Assembly (NCBI GenBank): GCA_045658765.1
Contig: JAZOVP010000099.1
Location: 1-55,101 of the forward strand
Source: Eubacteriales bacterium
GTDB taxonomy: Bacteria; Bacillota; Clostridia; Oscillospirales; SIG627
Reading direction: 5' to 3'
Length of the DNA: 55,101 nucleotides
The translations under genes and the position numbers were made by a program. Shown one piece after another: positions 17,150 through 45,442 of this stretch. The notes under the pieces are model-generated. The model did not search any database. It saw only the letters and a program-made list of their open reading frames with translations, and had not been told where the DNA came from. How positions within the stretch are numbered: position 1 is the stretch's first letter; every line of letters begins with the position of its first letter.

Positions 17150-17220
17150 TTCCTCGCCCCTTCCTTTTTTTATCATACCATAAATCCTCTCCCTCGCGCA
17201 AGAAAAAAGAATTTCGAATT

Positions 17221-17363
17221 TTTTCAAAAAATTTTCCCGAAAAAACCAATTGGCAGATTTTTTCGCCGATAACAATAGTGAAAGAGGCAAAAAACGCTTT
17301 TTTTCAAAAAATTTTCCCGAAAAACCCAATTGGCGCATTTTTTCGCCGATAACAATAGTGAAA
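17221..17363. repeat. Tandem direct duplication: two 63-bp copies with an 80-bp period
   Basis: Copy 1 (17221-17283) and copy 2 (17301-17363) differ at 3 positions. Both read TTTTCAAAAAATTTTCCCGAAAAA(A/C)CCAATTGGC(AG/GC)ATTTTTTCGCCGATAACAATAGTGAAA. Confidence 0.85.
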
Positions 17364-18407: not shown

Positions 18408-20012
18408 ATGAATATTCTTGTTAGTGCTATGAGTCTTTATACCCATCCCGAAGAAAAAGAATACCTTCTTCAAAAAGAGGGAAGAGAAATTCGGGTAAGC
18501 GCCTGCCAAACCAACGAACCCGTTCCCAAAGCACTTTCCCTTTATCTTTCCAAGAAGGGAGAAGCCCTTGATCAAATCGTGCTCCTTTGCACTCCCGCGG
18601 CACTCTCCTTCGATGCAAACGGAAAAAGCGCAGTCGATTATTTCAAAAACGCGATGCGCTCCTCGGGGATCGATGCCGAGATCCACACCCTGCTTCTAAA
18701 TGAAAAAGCCGATTCCGAATCCATCTATTTTACCGGTCTGGAACTCACCACGCTTTGCCGCACCTTTTCCGATCCCAAACTCTATATCGATTCCACCGGC
18801 GGCTTTCGCGATGCGATGATGTTTTTGATTTCCATGATGCAGCTGCTCAAGGAAGAAAAGATTCAAATCGCCGATGTGTTTTATACCGTGCTCGATCGCA
18901 AGGTTGCCTCTCCCCATCCCATTGTAAGCCGAATGGATGCCTATCGGGTATATGATCTCATCTCCGGTTATGAGGATCTTAAAACCTATGGCGATCCCAC
19001 CAAACTCAAAGAATATTTTTCGGCAAAAGATCTTTCCGCTGAAGCCGCAAAAATTCTCGATGCCCTGCAGAGCGTATATCATGAAATGAAGCTTTGCCGC
19101 GTTGCGCAAACAAACTCCGCGCTCCTTCGCCTTTCCCGTCTTCTGGAAGAATATACCCCCGCAGAAAACGCCTTTGATCGCGTGGTGGAACTTGCCGAAA
19201 CCAAATACGGCGGCATCCGCGATGGCTTCACCTATCCCGATTATATCAAGTGGTATTATGCGCATGGCTATGTTCCCCAAACCCTCGCCTTTTTCTATGA
19301 AACTCTTCCCGAAATTCTGGTGAGCGGGAAAATCCTTTATTACGGAAACCACTTAAAAGAAGTTTTGCAAAAGGATTTTGTTTCCAATGTTCCTCATCGC
19401 AAAGAACCATATTCCTTTTTCAATTCCTATTTCAAAAAAACCTTCGGATCCTATCAAGGCAAGGTGAGAAAAGCAAAAAAGGAAGTCCTTTCCTTGGCAA
19501 ATGCCGATTCCATTCCGATCGAGCAGCTTTCCCTTTCCGAATCGGGCAAAAAACTCTATGAAGGGCTTCGCTATTGCCTCCTTGGCAAGCACCATCTGCA
19601 GCTCTTGAAAAAGCCCGAAGCATCTTTCCTTCTCGAAGTGCTCCAAAACGGAAAAATGAAGGGCTTCGAGCGTGCAGAGGATCTTTGGAATTTTGATAAC
19701 ACGAAAAAGATTCTTGAAAGAATTGCGGGAAATGAAAAAATGCTGTGCGCCCTCTATGGTATCGCCCGCGAAGAAAAAGAACTCACCGATCGCGAGCACG
19801 CCCGCCTCATTCTCGCTTCGATCGACGGCAAAAACACCTTCCTCAAAGAAGGGGTCTCCGAAGAGGTGCTGGGAAATCTTCTGGAAAAATATTTCTATCT
19901 CAAGCACCAGCGCGACAGCGTTTTGCACGTTGGCCAAGATAGCGCTTCCCCCAAAACCCTGCGAAAACAGATTGCAGAAGCAATTTCCCTGATGGAGGAG
20001 ATATTAAAATGA
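18408..20012 (+). CDS. CARF (Cas_DxTHG / TM1812-type) plus HEPN protein, Csx1/Csm6-like; putative cyclic-oligoadenylate-activated RNase
   Basis: N-terminus MNILVSAMS..., then LYIDSTGGFRD (aa 128-134, a DxTHGxR-like motif), then VFYTV; this matches the DxTHG CARF pattern. The C-terminus has QRDSVLHVG (R502-X4-H507), an HEPN-type motif at the usual position. AAGGAGGA RBS. Confidence 0.55.
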   Translation: MNILVSAMSLYTHPEEKEYLLQKEGREIRVSACQTNEPVPKALSLYLSKKGEALDQIVLLCTPAALSFDANGKSAVDYFKNAMRSSGIDAEIHTLLLNEKADSESIYFTGLELTTLCRTFSDPKLYIDSTGGFRDAMMFLISMMQLLKEEKIQIADVFYTVLDRKVASPHPIVSRMDAYRVYDLISGYEDLKTYGDPTKLKEYFSAKDLSAEAAKILDALQSVYHEMKLCRVAQTNSALLRLSRLLEEYTPAENAFDRVVELAETKYGGIRDGFTYPDYIKWYYAHGYVPQTLAFFYETLPEILVSGKILYYGNHLKEVLQKDFVSNVPHRKEPYSFFNSYFKKTFGSYQGKVRKAKKEVLSLANADSIPIEQLSLSESGKKLYEGLRYCLLGKHHLQLLKKPEASFLLEVLQNGKMKGFERAEDLWNFDNTKKILERIAGNEKMLCALYGIAREEKELTDREHARLILASIDGKNTFLKEGVSEEVLGNLLEKYFYLKHQRDSVLHVGQDSASPKTLRKQIAEAISLMEEILK

Positions 20013-20629
20013 AAAAATATATTAGCACCATCACCCTTCAAACCAAAGGCGCGATCAAGCACAATTATCGCGATTCCAAAGGAATCGAAACCCCTCGTAT
20101 CCGCACCGCATTCCCCATTCTTCAGCAGATCAGCGATACCGTGGAAAAAGGGGAGGAAATTTCGGTGATCACCATCGTGGTGGGCGGCGAGGAAAACAAT
20201 GAAAATCTTCGCGCCTTCCGCGAGGAATTGGAAGAACTCAAAAATCAAAAGGGCTTCTTCTATACCCAAGAATGTATCCTGAAAGAGGAATCTGAAGAGG
20301 TGGAATCCATTCTTTCGCTCTTTTTGGCAATCACCAAAAAAGTTTCCGATGGCGATCGGCTTTATGCTTGCATCACCTATGGCACCAAGCCCATCGCCAT
20401 GGTTACCAATATGGCGCTCCACTATGCCTATCGCATCAAAAAAGATGTTTTGATCGAAGCGGTCAAATACGGCATGAAAGATTGGAACGCCACGGAAGAG
20501 CCCGTAGGCATTCTCTATGATACCACCGCTCTTTTCTATCTTGATTGTTTGATTGATCGCATTTCCTCCATGAAACTCGAAAACCCCGAAGAAGCGCTTC
20601 GCGCTCTGATTGAAACGGAGGGTGTTTGA
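20009..20629 (+). CDS. Stand-alone CARF-like protein (degenerate DxTHG motif CITYGTKP); candidate ring nuclease or regulatory subunit
   Basis: 206 aa. Same strand-helix pattern as the gene A N-terminus (MKKYISTITL, ISVITIVVGG, LYACITYGTKPIAMV, VKYG). ATGA overlap with gene A. Confidence 0.4.
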   Translation: MKKYISTITLQTKGAIKHNYRDSKGIETPRIRTAFPILQQISDTVEKGEEISVITIVVGGEENNENLRAFREELEELKNQKGFFYTQECILKEESEEVESILSLFLAITKKVSDGDRLYACITYGTKPIAMVTNMALHYAYRIKKDVLIEAVKYGMKDWNATEEPVGILYDTTALFYLDCLIDRISSMKLENPEEALRALIETEGV

Positions 20630-21774
20630 TGAGTTTTTCATCCGAATCCGATTTTGAATGGGAAGATCCCTTGGAGGAAATCTCGGAAGAATTCGAAGAA
20701 ATGTCGGAAGAAACCGAAGAAAAATTGCTTTTTTCCGGCCTTTCTTTCAATTCGAAAGGCAAAAGCGAAATTCAGGAATATATCAAAAAATTGAATTGGC
20801 CGAAACTCAAGGAAGAGCTCAATCTTTGGGGTCGGAAGTTTTCGGAAAGTCAAGGTGCCGAGCGCATCTTTGCCACCGAACGCATCTTAAAGCTTTTGGA
20901 AGACAATATTTTCGAATTCAGTTTTTGCGATAGCGATGCCCTTGCTGAAAATGCCAATTCTATTTTGCACATCAAATTCATCGGTGAACAAGATCATCCG
21001 ATTCGCTTTGTGAAAAGAATCTATCCGAAAAAAGTGTTTTTCGATGCTGTGTTCTATACCCTCGGATATATCACCTCGCCCAATCAATCGCCCGAGCGAG
21101 CCGCGGCGCGCGCGTATCATCACGATCACGAAAAAGGTGCGCAGTATGTTACGTATTTAACTTGGATGCTGGAATATTTCTCCCGCAGAAGAAGGGAAGA
21201 ATTGACCCGTTTGCATAAAAAAAACAAGCAACTTTTCCCCCGAGTTGTTTCGCAAGATGCCTCGTTTGAAGCGCAAAACACCGTCGAAAAGGAAGTGGCG
21301 GAGCGAAGCGAATCTGCCCGCGAAACCGAAGCGATCGTTTCCCTTGCCGCGCTTTGTTTTGATAAAATGCAGCTGGATCAAATGCTTGTGATCGGCGACG
21401 GAGCCATCGGTAAAGTGAAAAAAGTAAGCGGAAAAAACCTGCAGCTTTTCTATTCGTTCCGCCTTGTCAATTTCACCCGTTTTGCCATCGCAAAGGTATC
21501 GGAAAATGAAGATCGCATTCTGATGCGCGCCGCCGAACACGGCTTTTTATCGTTTTCCACCGAAATCACAGAGTTTTGCTATTCGAATCTTGTGAAAGCC
21601 GCTCTTTCTCCGTATATAATCGAAAAAAAGCTTTATTCGTTGGAAGATGGCAAAAAAGTTTTGCAGCAAAGCGCAGTGGCTGATTATCTAAAAATAGATC
21701 CGGGCACCTTAAGCCCGCAATTTCAGGCGGCCGCCCGCTATCTTGCCACCCATTGGAAATACAAACGTCCCTGA
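20629..21774 (+). CDS. Hypothetical protein with an acidic N-terminus; no recognisable domain
   Basis: Its ATG overlaps the upstream TGA by 1 nt, and GGAGG lies 8 nt upstream. The first 30 aa are very acidic (SESDFEWEDPLEEISEEFEEMSEETEE). A possible HTH-like segment near the C-terminus: QSAVADYLKIDPGTLSPQ. Confidence 0.6.
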   Translation: MSFSSESDFEWEDPLEEISEEFEEMSEETEEKLLFSGLSFNSKGKSEIQEYIKKLNWPKLKEELNLWGRKFSESQGAERIFATERILKLLEDNIFEFSFCDSDALAENANSILHIKFIGEQDHPIRFVKRIYPKKVFFDAVFYTLGYITSPNQSPERAAARAYHHDHEKGAQYVTYLTWMLEYFSRRRREELTRLHKKNKQLFPRVVSQDASFEAQNTVEKEVAERSESARETEAIVSLAALCFDKMQLDQMLVIGDGAIGKVKKVSGKNLQLFYSFRLVNFTRFAIAKVSENEDRILMRAAEHGFLSFSTEITEFCYSNLVKAALSPYIIEKKLYSLEDGKKVLQQSAVADYLKIDPGTLSPQFQAAARYLATHWKYKRP

Positions 21775-21789: not shown

Positions 21790-22977
21790 GTGAAATCCGT
21801 TTTACCGTTTGAAACCTTGCCAAAAGGTCTGCCGTTTTGGCGCAATGTTTTATATTGTGCCGTGGATCTTTCCGGAATTCAGAATTTTATCTTTTCTCAA
21901 ATGGATCAGAATACCACCCGCGAAGAGGCAAAATTTCGCTCTGAATTTGTGGAAAGCATCGCGATCAAAGTGAAGGAAAAATTAAAAGAATTCCCCGAAT
22001 ATCTCTTTGGCAATGCTTCGGGAGGGAATTTCACCTGCGCCTTTTCCCCCTCGGTGGATCAGGCGGCGCTCAGGGAAGTTTTGGATCAAATGCAGCGTTC
22101 GCTTTTTGTGGAAACGAGGGGCAATCTCACTTTCTATTATGCACTCCAATCGGCAAAGTGCGTTTCTTCGAAGCGATTCCAAAAAGGTCGCTCCCTCCAT
22201 GTTTCCGCCTTGATCGGAAAATCTTTGGAGGCGGAAAAATATCATTGCAAAAATCTTCTTTCGGCAAAAAATTCCGATGCCGATGGCATGTTTGCGATCC
22301 CCTCCGCGAAAAGCACACCCAAAAAAAGAAGCAGCGATCAAGCGGTGTGCAAATTCGATTTGGATCATCTGGGAGCGTTTTTCCGTGAAATCTCGGAATA
22401 CGATCGCAAAATCTGTGTTGGCCAAGCGCTCGATCAAGCCATCAAAGAAGCCCTGAAAAAAGATCCGCGCATCGAAACGGTTTTTGCAGGGGGCGATGAT
22501 ATCTTTTTCCTTTGCCCGCTCGATTCCGCGCTTTCCGTGATCGCCTCTTTTTACCGTCGCCTTCGAAATTTGTTGAAAAAAAGCGAATTTCTGGCAGAAT
22601 ATGCCGAGCATAATTTTGGCATTTCAGGCGGGGTTTGCGCGCTTCGGAATCAGCTCGATACCATTCCGTTTCTTTCCTATTTCCGCAGTGCGGAAAATGC
22701 CCTTGCCACCGCCAAAACCAAAGGCAAAAAGAATTGTGTGTATTTCAAAATTCCGGGTGGGGAAGAAATGCAAATTTCTTGGAAAAATCTCCTCTTCCTT
22801 GCCGATGCCCTATCGCGGGAAAAAGAAACCGTTTTTTCTCAGTATCGCTTTGGCGGAGCGGATTATATCAATATCCCTCTTCTTTGCGATCAGCTCACTT
22901 TTTGCGAAAAGCAAAAATCAAATTTCTCAAAAAAGGATGTAAAGCGTCTTTATGAAATCAAAAAGATGTCTCTATGA
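21790..22977 (+). CDS. Mini-Cas10-like nucleotide cyclase: Palm1 plus Palm2 with intact GGDD; no HD domain and no full D4 domain
   Basis: AVDLSGIQNFIF (aa 24-35, the Cas10 Palm1 signature), SGGNFTCAF, KFDLDHLGAFF (Palm2 start), FAGGDDIFFL (GGDD at aa 234-237, nt 22489-22500), GISGGVCAL and AENALATAKTKGKKNCVYF. Only 395 aa; GTG start. Confidence 0.6.
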   Translation: MKSVLPFETLPKGLPFWRNVLYCAVDLSGIQNFIFSQMDQNTTREEAKFRSEFVESIAIKVKEKLKEFPEYLFGNASGGNFTCAFSPSVDQAALREVLDQMQRSLFVETRGNLTFYYALQSAKCVSSKRFQKGRSLHVSALIGKSLEAEKYHCKNLLSAKNSDADGMFAIPSAKSTPKKRSSDQAVCKFDLDHLGAFFREISEYDRKICVGQALDQAIKEALKKDPRIETVFAGGDDIFFLCPLDSALSVIASFYRRLRNLLKKSEFLAEYAEHNFGISGGVCALRNQLDTIPFLSYFRSAENALATAKTKGKKNCVYFKIPGGEEMQISWKNLLFLADALSREKETVFSQYRFGGADYINIPLLCDQLTFCEKQKSNFSKKDVKRLYEIKKMSL

Positions 22978-23635
22978 AATTGTTCTCACCCCGCTTGAAA
23001 ACAGCCGTTTCGAGGCGATGCCAAAAGCCGAAGATTTGGAAAAAGCCCTCCCCGAAAGCATTTCCTCGGATTTGTTTGTGGATGGATTTTCCCATAAAAG
23101 AATCGATCTCGGCGTAGGATTTGAAGCAAGTTGCGAGGAGCAATATCATCATCTCAAGCGCCTGAAAGGGGCAAAGATCATTTCCGATCGCGCTCGCAAT
23201 CTTTCGATCGATCAAATGATTTGTCGCCTTGAAGAAGGGGAATTGAAAGTGGAAAACGGTGTGATCGGTTTTTCCGAGGCCTATTCTCGCGCTTTTCGCA
23301 CGATTCGCTTATCGGATTCCGATGCCTTGTTTGGAGTGGAACTAAAAAAAGGCGCCCGCTTTCGCTGTTTTGTGAAAAGCAAAAGCTCCTCCTTCCCCGA
23401 AACGATTCTGATCTCGGGCTCTCCCTTTTTGTTGCAAAAAATATCCCCCCTCTCGCCGCCCGCCTCTCTTGGCGTGTTGCAAAAGAAAGTTTTTCTCTCG
23501 GAAGGAAAAAACTTTGCTTCCAATCCCAAATCCCGATTCAAACTCAGCTTTGACCCCGAAAAAAATCTTCCTGTTTTGTGTGCGGGGAGTGTGCTCGATC
23601 CAAACGAGGTTGAAGGCGTTTTTATTGAAAAATAA
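22952..23635 (+). CDS. Hypothetical protein; possible reduced Csm4/Cmr3 (Cas5-like RAMP) partner of the Cas10-like protein
   Basis: Overlaps the cas10-like gene by 26 nt. The N-terminus CLYEIVLTPLENSRF ... ISSDLFVDGF resembles the Csm4 N-terminal strand plus the S-x-D-x-[IL]-F motif. No clear G-rich loop. Confidence 0.3.
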   Translation: MKSKRCLYEIVLTPLENSRFEAMPKAEDLEKALPESISSDLFVDGFSHKRIDLGVGFEASCEEQYHHLKRLKGAKIISDRARNLSIDQMICRLEEGELKVENGVIGFSEAYSRAFRTIRLSDSDALFGVELKKGARFRCFVKSKSSSFPETILISGSPFLLQKISPLSPPASLGVLQKKVFLSEGKNFASNPKSRFKLSFDPEKNLPVLCAGSVLDPNEVEGVFIEK

Positions 23636-29031: not shown

Positions 29032-29403
29032 ATGGGAATTTTTATCAATTTATCCAATCATCCCAGTAGGGAATGGGGCGAAAATCAGCTTGCCGCCGCC
29101 CGAAAAATCGGCAAGATCACAGATATCCCCTTTCCTCCCATCGATCCGCAAAGCACCCCCGAGCAAATCCAAAAAATCGCCAAATCTCTTTTCTCCTTCA
29201 TTCGTGCGCTGGGCAAACCCGTGGTGATGATTCAGGGCGAATTTACCTTCACCTATCAAATGGTTCGTTTGCTTCAGGAGGCAGGCATTCGCGCTGTTTC
29301 CTGTGCCACCAGGCGCGTGTGCGAAGAATTTGTAAACCAAAAGGGCGAAACCGTGAAAACCTCTTATTATCGTTTCGAGGGTTTTCGCGATTACTACCTC
29401 TAA
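29032..29403 (+). CDS. Small alpha/beta protein, possibly Csx20-like CRISPR-associated accessory family
   Basis: 123 aa: FINLSNHPSREW...QL, VVMIQGEFTFTYQMVRLLQEAGIRAVSCATRR and a C-terminal YRFEGFRDY. This matches my recollection of Csx20-type proteins. AAAGGAGAA RBS. Confidence 0.35.
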   Translation: MGIFINLSNHPSREWGENQLAAARKIGKITDIPFPPIDPQSTPEQIQKIAKSLFSFIRALGKPVVMIQGEFTFTYQMVRLLQEAGIRAVSCATRRVCEEFVNQKGETVKTSYYRFEGFRDYYL

Positions 29404-29466: not shown

Positions 29467-29495
29467 TTGCAAAAAAATTCTAATAATGGTAGAAT
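29467..29495 (+). promoter_or_regulatory. Sigma-A type promoter of the HTH-serine dehydratase gene
   Basis: TTGCAA, 17 nt, TAGAAT with a TGn extension. It places the transcript start after the ORF-track ATG at 29486. Confidence 0.55.
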
Positions 29496-29518
29496 TTTAT
29501 CAGAAGAAGGAAAGGAGA

Positions 29519-30952
29519 ATGAATGTGGATTTTTCCGAAAAGATTCGCTTTTTAAGAAAAAAGAATAAGCTCAGTCAGGCAGAGCTCGGGAAAATGGTGG
29601 GTGTTTCCAATCGCGCCGTTTCCAAGTGGGAAAACGGGGAAAGCTTCCCCTCCACCGATACCCTTCTTTCCGTGGCAACCGCCTTTGGGGTAACCCTTGA
29701 TTTCTTTTTGAAAAACGATGCCAAGGATTCTGCCAAAAAAATTGTGGAAGCGGGAATGGAATCGCTCCGTGAACTTTATAAAATCGGCATCGGCCCCTCG
29801 AGTTCGCATACCATGGGCCCCGCCCGAGCGGCAAATCTGTTTCGCAATCGCTTCCCCGAAGCCACCCGATTTGAAGCGGTGCTTTGCGGCTCCCTTGCAA
29901 AAATGGGCAAAGCCCATCGCGCCGATGTTTGCCTCAAAGAATCCTTTGCTCCGGCCGAATGCGAGGTAATTTTCGATATTAAAATGCGAAAGCTTTCCCA
30001 TCCAAACACGTTCTTTTTATCGGCATATCGCGGCGCGGAAAAGATCGGGTCTTGGGAAGTGGCAAGCGTTGGCGGCGGCAGTATCGAAGTGAAAGGCGAG
30101 AGGGAATATCATCCCCGCCGCATCTATCCCCATAATTCCTTCACCGAAATTGCCGAATTCTGCCGAAAAAATAAAATCCGCCTCTGGCAATATGTGGAAC
30201 ACTATGAAGGCAAAGAAATCTGGGATTATCTTCGCGAAATTTGGCAGGCAATGCTCTCTTCGATCGAAGAAGGTCTTTTAGCCGAAGGCGAACTCTATGG
30301 CGGGCTTGGGGTAAAGCGCAAGGCAAAATATCTTTATTCCCAGCACCATATCGATGAAAATTCCGAAACCCGCGAAAATCGCCTTGTTTGCTCTTTTGCG
30401 TTTGCCGTGAGCGAGCAAAACGCATCGGGTGGCAAGGTTGTTACCGCGCCCACTTGCGGTTCGAGCGGAATTTTGCCCGCAGTCCTCAAATATGTGAGCG
30501 AAAAAAGGGGCTTTGAAGAAATTCAAATCCTTCGCGCCCTTGCCACCGCAGGGCTGATCGGAAATCTGATCAAAACCAATGCCTCCATCAGCGGGGCAGA
30601 ATGTGGGTGTCAGGCGGAAGTGGGTTCTGCTTGTGCAATGGCAGCGGCGGGCTTGGGCGAAATTTATTCCATGTCCGTTTCCCAAATCGAATACGCCGCG
30701 GAAGTGGCGCTCGAGCACCATCTCGGGCTCACGTGCGATCCCATTCGCGGGCTTGTGCAAATCCCTTGCATCGAGCGAAATGCCGTGGCAGCAATGCGCG
30801 CCATCCATGCAATCAATCTTGCCAATTTCCTGGCAGATTCCAGAAAAATATCGTTTGATACCGTGGTAAAAACTATGTATGAAACCGGAAAAGATCTTCC
30901 TCGCCGCTACCGTGAAACAGGCGAGGGCGGACTTGCAAAACTCTATCGGTAA
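29519..30952 (+). CDS. XRE-type HTH domain fused to an iron-sulfur L-serine ammonia-lyase (SdaA-like, single chain)
   Basis: N-terminus IRFLRKKNKLSQAELGKMVGVSNRAVSKWENGES (HTH_3). Then IGIGPSSSHTMGP, APTCGSSGILPAV and SGAECGCQAEVGSACAMAA (4Fe-4S Cys ligands). Start set at ATG 29519. Confidence 0.75.
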   Translation: MNVDFSEKIRFLRKKNKLSQAELGKMVGVSNRAVSKWENGESFPSTDTLLSVATAFGVTLDFFLKNDAKDSAKKIVEAGMESLRELYKIGIGPSSSHTMGPARAANLFRNRFPEATRFEAVLCGSLAKMGKAHRADVCLKESFAPAECEVIFDIKMRKLSHPNTFFLSAYRGAEKIGSWEVASVGGGSIEVKGEREYHPRRIYPHNSFTEIAEFCRKNKIRLWQYVEHYEGKEIWDYLREIWQAMLSSIEEGLLAEGELYGGLGVKRKAKYLYSQHHIDENSETRENRLVCSFAFAVSEQNASGGKVVTAPTCGSSGILPAVLKYVSEKRGFEEIQILRALATAGLIGNLIKTNASISGAECGCQAEVGSACAMAAAGLGEIYSMSVSQIEYAAEVALEHHLGLTCDPIRGLVQIPCIERNAVAAMRAIHAINLANFLADSRKISFDTVVKTMYETGKDLPRRYRETGEGGLAKLYR

Positions 30953-44150: not shown

Positions 44151-44299
44151 ACTCACTCAAACCAATCCAAACTGATCAGGCCAAACGGAGCCGGGTTACG
44201 ATTTGTAACAGTGGATTTTGTATCCGCGGGACAGAAAACTGTTTCCACGGGTATTTTTTTATACATTTTTTTCTTTCTTCCGCATATCATTCCATAGAA
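44151..44299 (+). promoter_or_regulatory. Long structured 5' leader of the CDF transporter; candidate metal-responsive riboswitch or attenuator, class unassigned
   Basis: Three consecutive hairpins: GTTAC-gattt-GTAAC, GTGGAT-tttgt-ATCCGC and GGGACAG-aaaa-CTGTTTC. They are followed by CCACGGGTATTTTTTTATACATTTTTTTC. Confidence 0.3.
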
Positions 44300-44311
44300 T
44301 TGGAGGAATCT

Positions 44312-45442
44312 ATGAAAAGCGAAATTCAAACCGAAAAGCGGATTTTCGTTGGCAAAACCGCGGCCACCACTGGCATTGTTTTCAATCTTCTTCTCTCTTT
44401 GGGAAAAATCATCGCAGGCAATCTTTTCGGTGCCGTTTGTGTGGTTGCCGATGGCGTGAATAATCTTGCCGATGCCGCCTCTTCGTGCGCCATGCTCTTT
44501 GGTTTTGTGCTTTCCGAAAAGCCCGCCGATAAAGAGCATCCCTATGGCCACGCCCGCTTTGAGCATCTCTCTTCCCTTGTGGTATCCATTCTTATTTTTG
44601 TGGTGGGTTTTGAATTTTTCAAAACCTCGGTCATCAAAATCTTTCGCCCCGCTGCCATCGAAGCCACGCCCGTTTTGTTTGGCGTTTTGATCGCATCGAT
44701 TTTGGTGAAAAGCGCACTCGCAGTGTATTTTGATGCCCGCGGCAAAAAAATCTCATCGCAAAGTCTTGCCGCCGCTTCCATCGATAGCCGAAACGATGCC
44801 GTGATGACCACCCTCATCCTTGTTTGTGCCGTGGTGGAAAAAATCTGGAATTTCCGTCTTGATGGATTCGCGGGTGCCGCCCTTTCCGTGTTCATTTTCT
44901 GGAGCGGCATCGGAATCGCAGGCAAAACCATTTCGGCCCTTCTCGGAAGGGGAGCCGATCCCGCCTTGAAGGAAAAAATGATTTGCAAAATCAAATCCGC
45001 GCCCGAGGTGATCGGGTGCCATGATCTGATGCTCCATGATTACGGCCCCGGCAAGCATTTTGCCAGTATCCATGTGGAAATGGATAAAAACACCGATCCC
45101 ATGCTCTGCCATGCCCTCATCGATCAAATCGAGCGTGAATGCAAAGAAGAATTCGGGGTGCACCTTGTGATCCATTATGATCCCGTCGAGCTCGACAATC
45201 CCGAAACCGTTCGCTTGAAAAATTTGGTGCAGGCACTGCTTTCCGTGCGCGATGCCCGCCTTCTCATCCACGATTTTCGGCTTGTTTCGGAAGAAGGGGA
45301 GAGCGTTTTATATTTCGATCTCGAATTCCCGAGCGAACTTTTAAATCAAAAAGATACCATCGAATTGAATCTGAAAGAAGCCCTTTTCAAAATCGAAGCC
45401 AAAGAATATCGCCTCAAGATCACGCGCGATCTCGAAAGCTGA
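44312..45442 (+). CDS. Cation diffusion facilitator (CDF) family metal efflux transporter
   Basis: TM domain with an ADGVNNLADAASS-type metal site and HxxxD-like motifs, plus a C-terminal cytoplasmic domain. Start reset from TTG 44300 to ATG 44312, with a GGAGG RBS. Confidence 0.85.
   Translation: MKSEIQTEKRIFVGKTAATTGIVFNLLLSLGKIIAGNLFGAVCVVADGVNNLADAASSCAMLFGFVLSEKPADKEHPYGHARFEHLSSLVVSILIFVVGFEFFKTSVIKIFRPAAIEATPVLFGVLIASILVKSALAVYFDARGKKISSQSLAAASIDSRNDAVMTTLILVCAVVEKIWNFRLDGFAGAALSVFIFWSGIGIAGKTISALLGRGADPALKEKMICKIKSAPEVIGCHDLMLHDYGPGKHFASIHVEMDKNTDPMLCHALIDQIERECKEEFGVHLVIHYDPVELDNPETVRLKNLVQALLSVRDARLLIHDFRLVSEEGESVLYFDLEFPSELLNQKDTIELNLKEALFKIEAKEYRLKITRDLES

Follow-up and report, generated by a model that had tools for sequence, protein, structure and literature searches.

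What is a Cas10 gene doing in a locus with no CRISPR array? Cas10 is the defining enzyme of type III CRISPR-Cas. To our knowledge, its cyclase has been studied only within complexes guided by CRISPR RNA (crRNA), the single-Palm mCpol of Panoptes excepted. The question is raised by an open reading frame (ORF) at 21790-22977 of contig JAZOVP010000099.1 (assembly GCA_045658765.1), from a Eubacteriales bacterium of the Oscillospirales. Throughout, the window is the whole 55,101-nt stretch that was analysed. The product of the ORF, mini-Cas10, belongs to a conserved core of four genes: mini-cas10, a predicted shortened csm4 homolog (Y), a superfamily 1 (SF1) helicase gene related to Upf1 and mkoA, and a gene called Z. 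We conclude with moderate confidence that this module is a type III-A-derived defence system that signals through cyclic tetra-adenylate (cA4) and is uncoupled from crRNA.

Identity and architecture of mini-Cas10

Mini-Cas10 matches the Pfam family Cas10-Cmr2_palm2 (PF22335) at 56.8 bits against a cut-off of 27, as do all members of its 17-sequence alignment (17/17), and PADLOC and NCBIfam also assign it to Cas10. A search of the PDB with the family profile returned only Cas10/Csm1 chains at E<1e-6. The best, Lactococcus lactis Csm1 (1e-9), aligns at residues 251-293 with residues 24-67 of mini-Cas10 (Palm1) and at 514-703 with residues 185-374 (Palm2 and the start of D4). The family profile was needed for this result, a single-sequence phmmer search of the PDB being marginal (E 0.03). 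An AlphaFold2 model built from the 17-homolog alignment has a mean predicted local distance difference test (pLDDT) of 88.3 and a predicted template modelling score (pTM) of 0.86, and its top 50 Foldseek matches in the PDB are Cas10 without exception (50/50). Best among them is the Thermococcus onnurineus Csm1-Csm4 cassette with ATP, pppApA, cA3 or cA4 bound (6o7b, 6o75, 6o78; E 2e-13, TM score on the query 0.52-0.63). It shares the motifs of the composite Palm1/Palm2 ATP pocket and the pairing with a Cas5-family protein.

On profile and model evidence, the ORF encodes a genuine Cas10. A preliminary description of the window had proposed a Cas10 derivative in place of an unrelated GGDEF cyclase, and this stands: the best profile and structural matches are to Cas10, not to GGDEF or other palm families, and the motifs it listed fall on Cas10 catalytic positions. 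GGDEF diguanylate cyclases share the Palm/cyclase fold and a GG[DE][DE]F-type metal site. Mini-Cas10 matches them weakly and below threshold, and a GGDEF assignment was rejected (TIGR00254 at 19.7 against a cut-off of 37.4; PF00990 in 1/17 members, at E 1e-3). An mCpol assignment was rejected as well, since PF18182 scores 18.4 bits against a cut-off of 26.4, covers residues 216-248 only and is found weakly in 3/17 members. Compared with viral models, the mini-Cas10 model found only GGDEF proteins, weakly and with a single Palm aligned (TM score on the query <0.3).

The gene starts with GTG, 5 nt downstream of an AAGGAAG Shine-Dalgarno sequence. The start is correct, since 16 homologs beginning MKTVLPFE line up with its N-terminus residue by residue. 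Every Cas10 string quoted in the preliminary description is present in the translation at the residues given there: AVDLSGIQNFIF at 24-35, SGGNFTCAF at 77-85, KFDLDHLGAFF at 188-198 and FAGGDDIFFL at 232-241, with GISGGVCAL and AENALATAKTKGKKNCVYF likewise found. A collection of 5.8 billion proteins yielded 17 relatives (388-409 aa, 40-67% identity). In their alignment D26, S28-G29-I30-Q31, K188-x-D190-x-D192-x-L-G and G234-G235-D236-D237 are invariant, and about 45 of 47 representatives of the wider family retain GGDD, DxD and SGIQ. The motifs are thus not due to chance and, judged from these alignments, the active site is intact and under selection. One representative from outside the window, P0059 (395 aa), has GREE for GGDD and SKVQ for SGIQ, and is possibly a cyclase-dead variant.

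The chain contains two cyclase/polymerase Palm domains. Palm2 carries DxD and GGDD. The corresponding site of Palm1 is degenerate, with SGGNF or SSGKL across the family where Palm2 has GGDD, as in canonical Cas10. Canonical Csm1 differs in having about 750-800 aa with an HD domain, a Zn-finger D2 domain and a full D4 domain. Many Cas10s, not all, have an HD nuclease domain. In both alignment and model mini-Cas10 has none: Palm1 starts near residue 19 and Csm1 residues 1-250 have no counterpart, in agreement with the preliminary description. The starts of the two Palms lie 161 aa apart, compared with 263 aa in Csm1, or about 100 residues fewer. Neither the 17-homolog alignment nor the model shows a Cys4 cluster or Zn-finger D2 between the Palms, and the roughly 60 aa noted earlier at this site prove to be a 57-aa linker without a Cys4 finger. 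Four cysteines (C83, C124, C242 and C316) are invariant in the 17 closest homologs despite the absence of the canonical Zn-finger domain; C242 is not conserved across the wider family. The C-terminus was described as a 70-aa tail in place of D4. The tail is indeed short and helical, but by alignment and model it is a remnant of D4 and not a substitute for it, with helices that align to Csm1 up to about residue 703 of 757.

How unusual is the small size? Among 1.84 billion representatives, an exhaustive profile search identified 40 clusters (E<1e-30), nearly all of whose full-length members have 364-443 aa. The mini-Cas10 family itself comprises about 45 clusters at 50% identity, 364-431 aa long, from uncultured gut Clostridia (Acutalibacteraceae, Faecousia and Oscillospiraceae where taxonomy is given); the host of the window likewise belongs to an uncultured gut lineage of Clostridia/Eubacteriales, represented by metagenome-assembled genomes. 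A scan of metagenomes added one short contig and no more. Because the length holds throughout the family, it is a conserved trait and not a truncation or assembly artefact. Cas10s almost as small (416-443 aa), also without HD, occur in complete type III-A CRISPR loci, so small size alone is not unique; the unusual feature of mini-Cas10 is its genomic context. A major survey of type III loci left out Cas10s below 500 aa (PMC11229360) and would therefore have hidden both this family and its compact III-A relatives.

Type III-A relatives, mini-Csm4 and missing CRISPR parts

In a neighbor-joining (NJ) tree of 159 Cas10 relatives, the mini-Cas10 family is monophyletic and its sister is a clade of 416-443-aa Cas10s without HD. 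The preliminary description had suggested a Palm phylogeny; this tree of Cas10 relatives places the protein within Cas10, next to III-A. Sister-clade proteins are nearest to mini-Cas10 in profile ranking as well as in the tree. They share its two-Palm architecture without HD or Zn finger, an N-terminal F-x-N/T-hPxG strand motif, and SGIQ, DxD and GGDD, and their D4 ends are about 35-45 aa longer. Four members lie in type III-A loci. Two of these loci are complete (Cas10-Csm2-Csm3-Csm4-Csm5-Cas6-Cas1-Cas2) and one, L113, also has an array (gathered loci are denoted L001 and so on). A second group of Cas10s, of about 430 aa, is found in Bacteroidales III-A loci with Cas6, Csm2-5, CARF-PD-(D/E)xK effectors, Csx20 and a RecD-like helicase. 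As a separate observation, complete III-A loci at L112 1382-7614, L113 10001-17638 and L011 31-9559, equipped with Csm2-5, Cas6, Cas1/2 and arrays, have Cas10s of only 422-430 aa with no HD or Zn finger. Such compact Cas10s, below the 500-aa survey filter, may be under-described.

The sister clade also provided the key to gene Y. In the window the start of Y and the stop of cas10 share 26 nt, and the two genes overlap in 10/11 loci, which suggests coupled translation. We built a hidden Markov model (HMM) of 11 Y orthologs and searched it against all 1884 ORFs of the gathered loci. Outside the mini-Cas10 family it matched five proteins (E 3.7e-11 to 3e-4), all at the Csm4 position of III-A loci and all called Csm4 by PADLOC (5/5). 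A profile-profile comparison of Y with the sister-clade Csm4 by hhalign gave 98% probability (E 3e-13, 223 columns), and both contain the motifs LSDxFP and KxxKKIKFI/LKxLKSARYI. Against Csm2, Csm3, Csm5 and Cas6 of the same loci hhalign gave no match, so the signal is specific to Csm4. The homology emerged only with sister-clade sequences: Y has no match in Pfam (all members), PADLOC, PDB (profile) or PHROGs, and hhalign probabilities against Csm2-5 of the Bacteroidales III-A loci are <4%. An AlphaFold2 model of Y is poor (pLDDT 50). Its Foldseek matches are mostly class 1 RAMP subunits, none significant, which is a consistent hint and no independent proof. From the profile comparisons we identify Y as a shortened Csm4/Cas5 homolog (mini-Csm4), about 80 aa shorter than sister-clade Csm4. 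By sequence, then, mini-Cas10 is paired with a Cas5-family subunit whose gene lies directly downstream and overlaps its own.

Other CRISPR parts were absent near the operon. A search confined to the 55-kb window and to +-10 kb around eight related loci turned up no array; as a positive control, the same method recovered a 21-repeat array in L113. Nor were Cas1 or Cas2 found in the window or the eight loci. PADLOC, Pfam, HMM and hhalign searches, with two sets of Csm2/3/5, found no Csm2, Csm3, Csm5 or Cas6 there. Where sister-clade loci have Csm2, Csm3, Csm5, Cas6, Cas1, Cas2 and the 21-repeat array, the family of the window has the SF1 helicase and Z instead. The loss of the last 35-45 aa or so of D4 fits with the loss of Cas11/Csm2.

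Since all outgroups are CRISPR-linked, parsimony derives the module from a compact III-A effector. On this view the effector lost its crRNA backbone and acquired the helicase and Z.

The signalling module and alternatives to it

Genes of the island are co-directional and mostly overlap, and they keep the same order in L001-L007. More distant members of the family (E 1e-45 to 1e-75) retain only cas10-Y-helicase-Z, and their effector is swapped. Wherever the contig reaches beyond cas10 on its upstream side, a CARF-HEPN RNase adjoins the core, but its type varies: Csx1 in the window, Csx1-like proteins in L047 and L050, and Csm6 (CARF-6H-HEPN) in L048. All Csx1 orthologs keep the HEPN motif as RNxxxH. 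As in type III loci, then, one effector module can replace another. The window also encodes a CARF-only protein, predicted to be a second protein that binds cyclic oligoadenylate (cOA) and to act as a regulator, buffer or ring nuclease.

Csx20 is found in the window, L001, L003 and L004 and is absent from some variants, such as L048 with its Csm6. Members of the Csx20 family are cA4-specific ring nucleases in vitro, degrading cA4 and not cA6 (PMC12409355). By analogy with this family biochemistry, Csx20 points to cA4 as the signal of the mini-Cas10 module. A predicted generator (mini-Cas10), a CARF effector (Csx1) and a ring nuclease family member (Csx20) are thus all encoded in the island.

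The helicase has an intact Walker A motif (GPPGSGKT at 457) and Walker B motif (VIVDEA at 807), preceded by an N-terminal extension of about 430 aa. It matches the MkoA model of type I Mokosh (Table 1). Unlike that system, the operon has no MkoB/PLD nuclease, and the helicase is linked to Cas10-Csm4 and CARF effectors. Z and the protein X, encoded upstream of mini-cas10, had no match in PDB profile searches. PHROGs returned nothing for X, Y or Z except the Sel1-repeat region of Z, and Pfam had no match to any member of X. In 53 gathered loci with a Cas10-profile match but no family gene, no relative of X, of the Z core or of the helicase N-terminus was detected. Against Csm2-5 of the Bacteroidales III-A loci, hhalign probabilities for X, the Z N-terminus and the helicase N-terminus are <4%.

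In the mechanism we infer for complex formation, trigger, product and defence role, mini-Cas10 and mini-Csm4 would form the Cas10-Csm4 'foot', the cyclase heterodimer of a III-A effector. The crRNA backbone (Csm2, Csm3, Csm5), Cas6, Cas1/2 and the array would have been lost in this lineage, with the helicase and Z in their place, and the four-protein module would sense infection without a CRISPR guide. The likeliest trigger is contact of the helicase, mini-Csm4 or both with foreign nucleic acid (probably RNA), which would switch on the Cas10 cyclase to convert ATP to cA4. Binding of cA4 to the CARF domain of Csx1 would activate the HEPN RNase, with growth arrest or abortive infection as the outcome. 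The system would be reset by Csx20, perhaps together with the CARF-only protein, through degradation or buffering of cA4. Canonical Csm1, by comparison, works as part of a Csm2-5 complex loaded with crRNA, and target RNA switches it on. In type III systems, Csx1/Csm6 CARF-HEPN RNases are switched on by cOA, not off.

Several points weigh against this reading. Csm4 holds the crRNA 5' tag in Csm complexes, and the fact that it has been kept suggests that the module may still bind RNA of some kind. Many type III-B/C loci have no array nearby and use crRNAs in trans, so the absence of a local array is no proof of crRNA independence. Z, X or the helicase N-terminus could be a Cas7 diverged beyond recognition. 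The cA4 assignment draws only on biochemistry at the level of the Csx20 family, in a module some of whose variants (L048, for example) do without Csx20. The NJ tree is distance-based, with a midpoint root and no support values.

One alternative is a module that is still RNA-guided. As an extremely diverged type III effector it would use crRNAs from arrays elsewhere in the genome, with Z or the helicase N-terminus replacing Cas7/Cas11 and the helicase as an accessory, like DinG in type IV-A. The retained subunit is precisely the one that binds the 5' tag, Z and the helicase N-terminus have no assignable fold, and Bacteroidales III-A loci also have Csx20 and an SF1 helicase, there beside a full Csm set. 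Many type III loci lack arrays of their own, according to an Extended Data legend of PMC12669027. We nonetheless judge RNA guidance unlikely. Sister-clade profiles that do detect Csm4 reveal no Cas7, Cas11 or Cas6 homolog, neither an array nor adaptation genes are present in the window or the eight related loci, the end of D4 that docks Cas11 is deleted, and the island is a self-contained cassette at different chromosomal sites. Less probable again is a different product (a conjugate like S-adenosylmethionine-AMP (SAM-AMP), cA3, cA6 or a linear oligoadenylate) or a role outside defence, such as stress or RNA-quality-control signalling through the Upf1-like helicase. Cas10 enzymes do make several products (PMC12669027, PMC10600005), the L048 variant uses Csm6 without Csx20, and no mobile-element or other defence genes were recognised beside the island in the window. 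CARF-HEPN and the Csx20 ring nuclease are, however, the standard cA4 defence toolkit, and the patchy distribution, variable effectors and differing insertion sites are typical of defence islands.

A guard like Panoptes would invert the logic: the cyclase would run constitutively, and the cell would detect infection through removal of the signal by a phage sponge or ring nuclease. The one characterised CRISPR-independent Cas10-like cyclase, mCpol, acts in this way, as does a version with cA3 and a CARF-transmembrane (CARF-TM) effector (PMC12657230, PMC13577387). Like mini-Cas10, mCpol is a Cas10-type Palm cyclase outside CRISPR that signals to an effector; it has a single Palm, homodimerises, is constitutively active and works with 2TM-beta or CARF-TM effectors (PMC12657230, PMC12657218, PMC13577387). 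Mini-Cas10 differs in having two Palms per chain, a Csm4 partner and CARF-HEPN effectors, and it branches within Cas10 next to III-A. We consider such a guard very improbable here. Its effectors would be Csx1/Csm6 RNases that cOA activates, and Csx20, the cA4 ring nuclease encoded in the operon, would undo any standing signal. The protein itself has the two Palms of a Cas10 and is not an mCpol, and neither the helicase nor Csm4 would have a role.

A literature search found no description of a Cas10-Csm4-helicase-Z module. The 2025 CRISPR classification includes the reduced subtypes III-G/H/I with inactive or lost cyclase domains and III-A2 without identifiable Cas11, and nothing like the mini-Cas10 module (PMC12669027). 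A hypothetical 'minimal Cas10 + CARF-HEPN' ancestor is mCpol (PMC8730458). None of these (mCpol/Panoptes, III-G/H/I, III-A2) matches an active two-Palm Cas10 with Csm4 and an SF1 helicase but without Cas7/Cas11. We regard it as evenly balanced whether this is the first case of a two-Palm Cas10-Cas5 (Csm1-Csm4) module serving as a guide-free, CRISPR-free innate sensor, its cyclase rewired to a Upf1/MkoA-like helicase and Z, with helicase engagement of foreign RNA or DNA triggering cA4 and Csx1. If so, another sensor can be coupled to the type III alarm module, with a helicase taking the place of the guide-RNA scaffold. The module also bears on the debate over whether simple cOA-based abortive-infection modules are the ancestors of type III systems or their decay products; the NJ tree favours decay, that is, exaptation from III-A. 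At about 390 aa, mini-Cas10 is the most compact natural two-Palm Cas10 available for structural studies of cOA synthesis and for its engineering, and the four-protein module is a tractable system for asking what besides target RNA switches Cas10 on.

Other features of the island and the window

Table 1. Features of the mini-Cas10 island, in window coordinates unless given as residues
Feature	Position	Strand	Details
Promoter-like element, tandem duplication, 80-nt period	17219..17363	+	A/T-rich UP-like tract, then TGCGATAAY
Small accessory ORF, 209 aa	17386..18015	+	Conserved
Small accessory ORF, 103 aa	18028..18339	+	Conserved
Csx1-type CARF-HEPN RNase, 534 aa, predicted effector	18408..20012	+	HEPN R502-DSVL-H507
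CARF-only protein, 206 aa, Csx1-family CARF without HEPN	20009..20629	+	PDLC01821, 2.6e-52
X, 382 aa, acidic N-terminus, accessory	20626..21774	+	Only in the subfamily closest to the window
Mini-Cas10, 395 aa	21790..22977	+	Pfam, PADLOC, NCBIfam, profile, motif and AlphaFold2/Foldseek evidence
Mini-Cas10, N-terminal beta-strand	residues 1-17		Conserved motif VLPFExLPKGLP
Mini-Cas10, Palm1	residues 19-126		D26-x-SGIQ, degenerate SGGNF
Mini-Cas10, linker/D2 remnant	residues 127-183		One strand, two short helices, loop; no Cys4 finger
Mini-Cas10, Palm2	residues 184-330		D190xD192, GGDD 234-237
Mini-Cas10, D4 remnant, 65 aa	residues 331-395		Four helices
Mini-Csm4 (Y), 227 aa, shortened Csm4/Cas5-family RAMP homolog	22952..23635	+	HMM, PADLOC, hhalign
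SF1 (Upf1/MkoA-like) helicase, 1145 aa	23645..27082	+	MkoA PDLC03920, 6e-115, residues 48-1116
Z, 643 aa	27069..29000	+	Conserved N-terminal module of about 385 aa; C-terminal Sel1 repeats
Csx20, 123 aa, predicted off-switch	29032..29403	+	PADLOC 1.1e-31; PF27247

In Z, the conserved part is the N-terminal module; its Sel1 repeats are optional and are absent in L004, L005, L048 and L050. In L001, L003, L005 and L006 the two accessory ORFs are likewise found in synteny at the island's 5' end; they are absent from distant variants and have no family match in Pfam, PADLOC or PHROGs. The 209-aa ORF has a signal-peptide-like N-terminus and the 103-aa product is very hydrophobic. In L050 (6125-9985) and in L051, ORFs of 630, 651 and 790 aa lie between the Csx1-like gene and mini-cas10. 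One of the 630- and 651-aa ORFs of L050 carries five 93-nt tandem repeats. These large extra ORFs may be alternative effectors or sensors.

A non-coding element of about 70 nt recurs among these loci. It consists of an A/T-rich tract, CAAAAAACCAAAC, a T-run, TGCGATAAY and TAGTGAAAG. In the window it is a tandem upstream of the first island gene, and in related loci it is found there and also just downstream of csx20 (L001 5524-5574 and 17399-17457; L003 1019-1094; L005 5352-5449; L006 13742-13794; L004 10583-10642). Its sequence suggests a shared UP-element/extended -10 promoter that may include an operator; a role as a small RNA is possible. We rejected the idea that the 65-nt direct repeats at 17219-17363 are CRISPR-like, given a spacer of only 15 nt, the conserved A/T-rich tract with promoter-like TGnGATAAY, and the occurrence 3' of csx20 elsewhere. 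The N-terminus of X is strongly acidic and of low complexity, and includes a 21-nt tandem repeat at 20677-20722. By eye, a C-terminal segment of X (LQQxAAxYxGxxxSTLSPxFxAAxRYL) resembles a helix-turn-helix (HTH). X could be a regulator of the promoter-like element.

The flanks of the island are housekeeping genes. In the window they encode an alanine racemase, a class IV aminotransferase and an ArsC-like protein on one side and a serine dehydratase on the other. Because the flanks differ between loci, the cassette appears to be a mobile island; no phage, plasmid or viral-contig copies of the module were found. The serine dehydratase gene directly downstream of the island (29486-30952, +) encodes an unusual fusion of L-serine dehydratase (beta and alpha) to an N-terminal Cro/C1-type HTH_3 domain. 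Further along, a NiCo (nickel/cobalt) riboswitch at 44162-44236 (+) precedes the ORF at 44300-45442; it scores 50.6 bits against a gathering score of 37.

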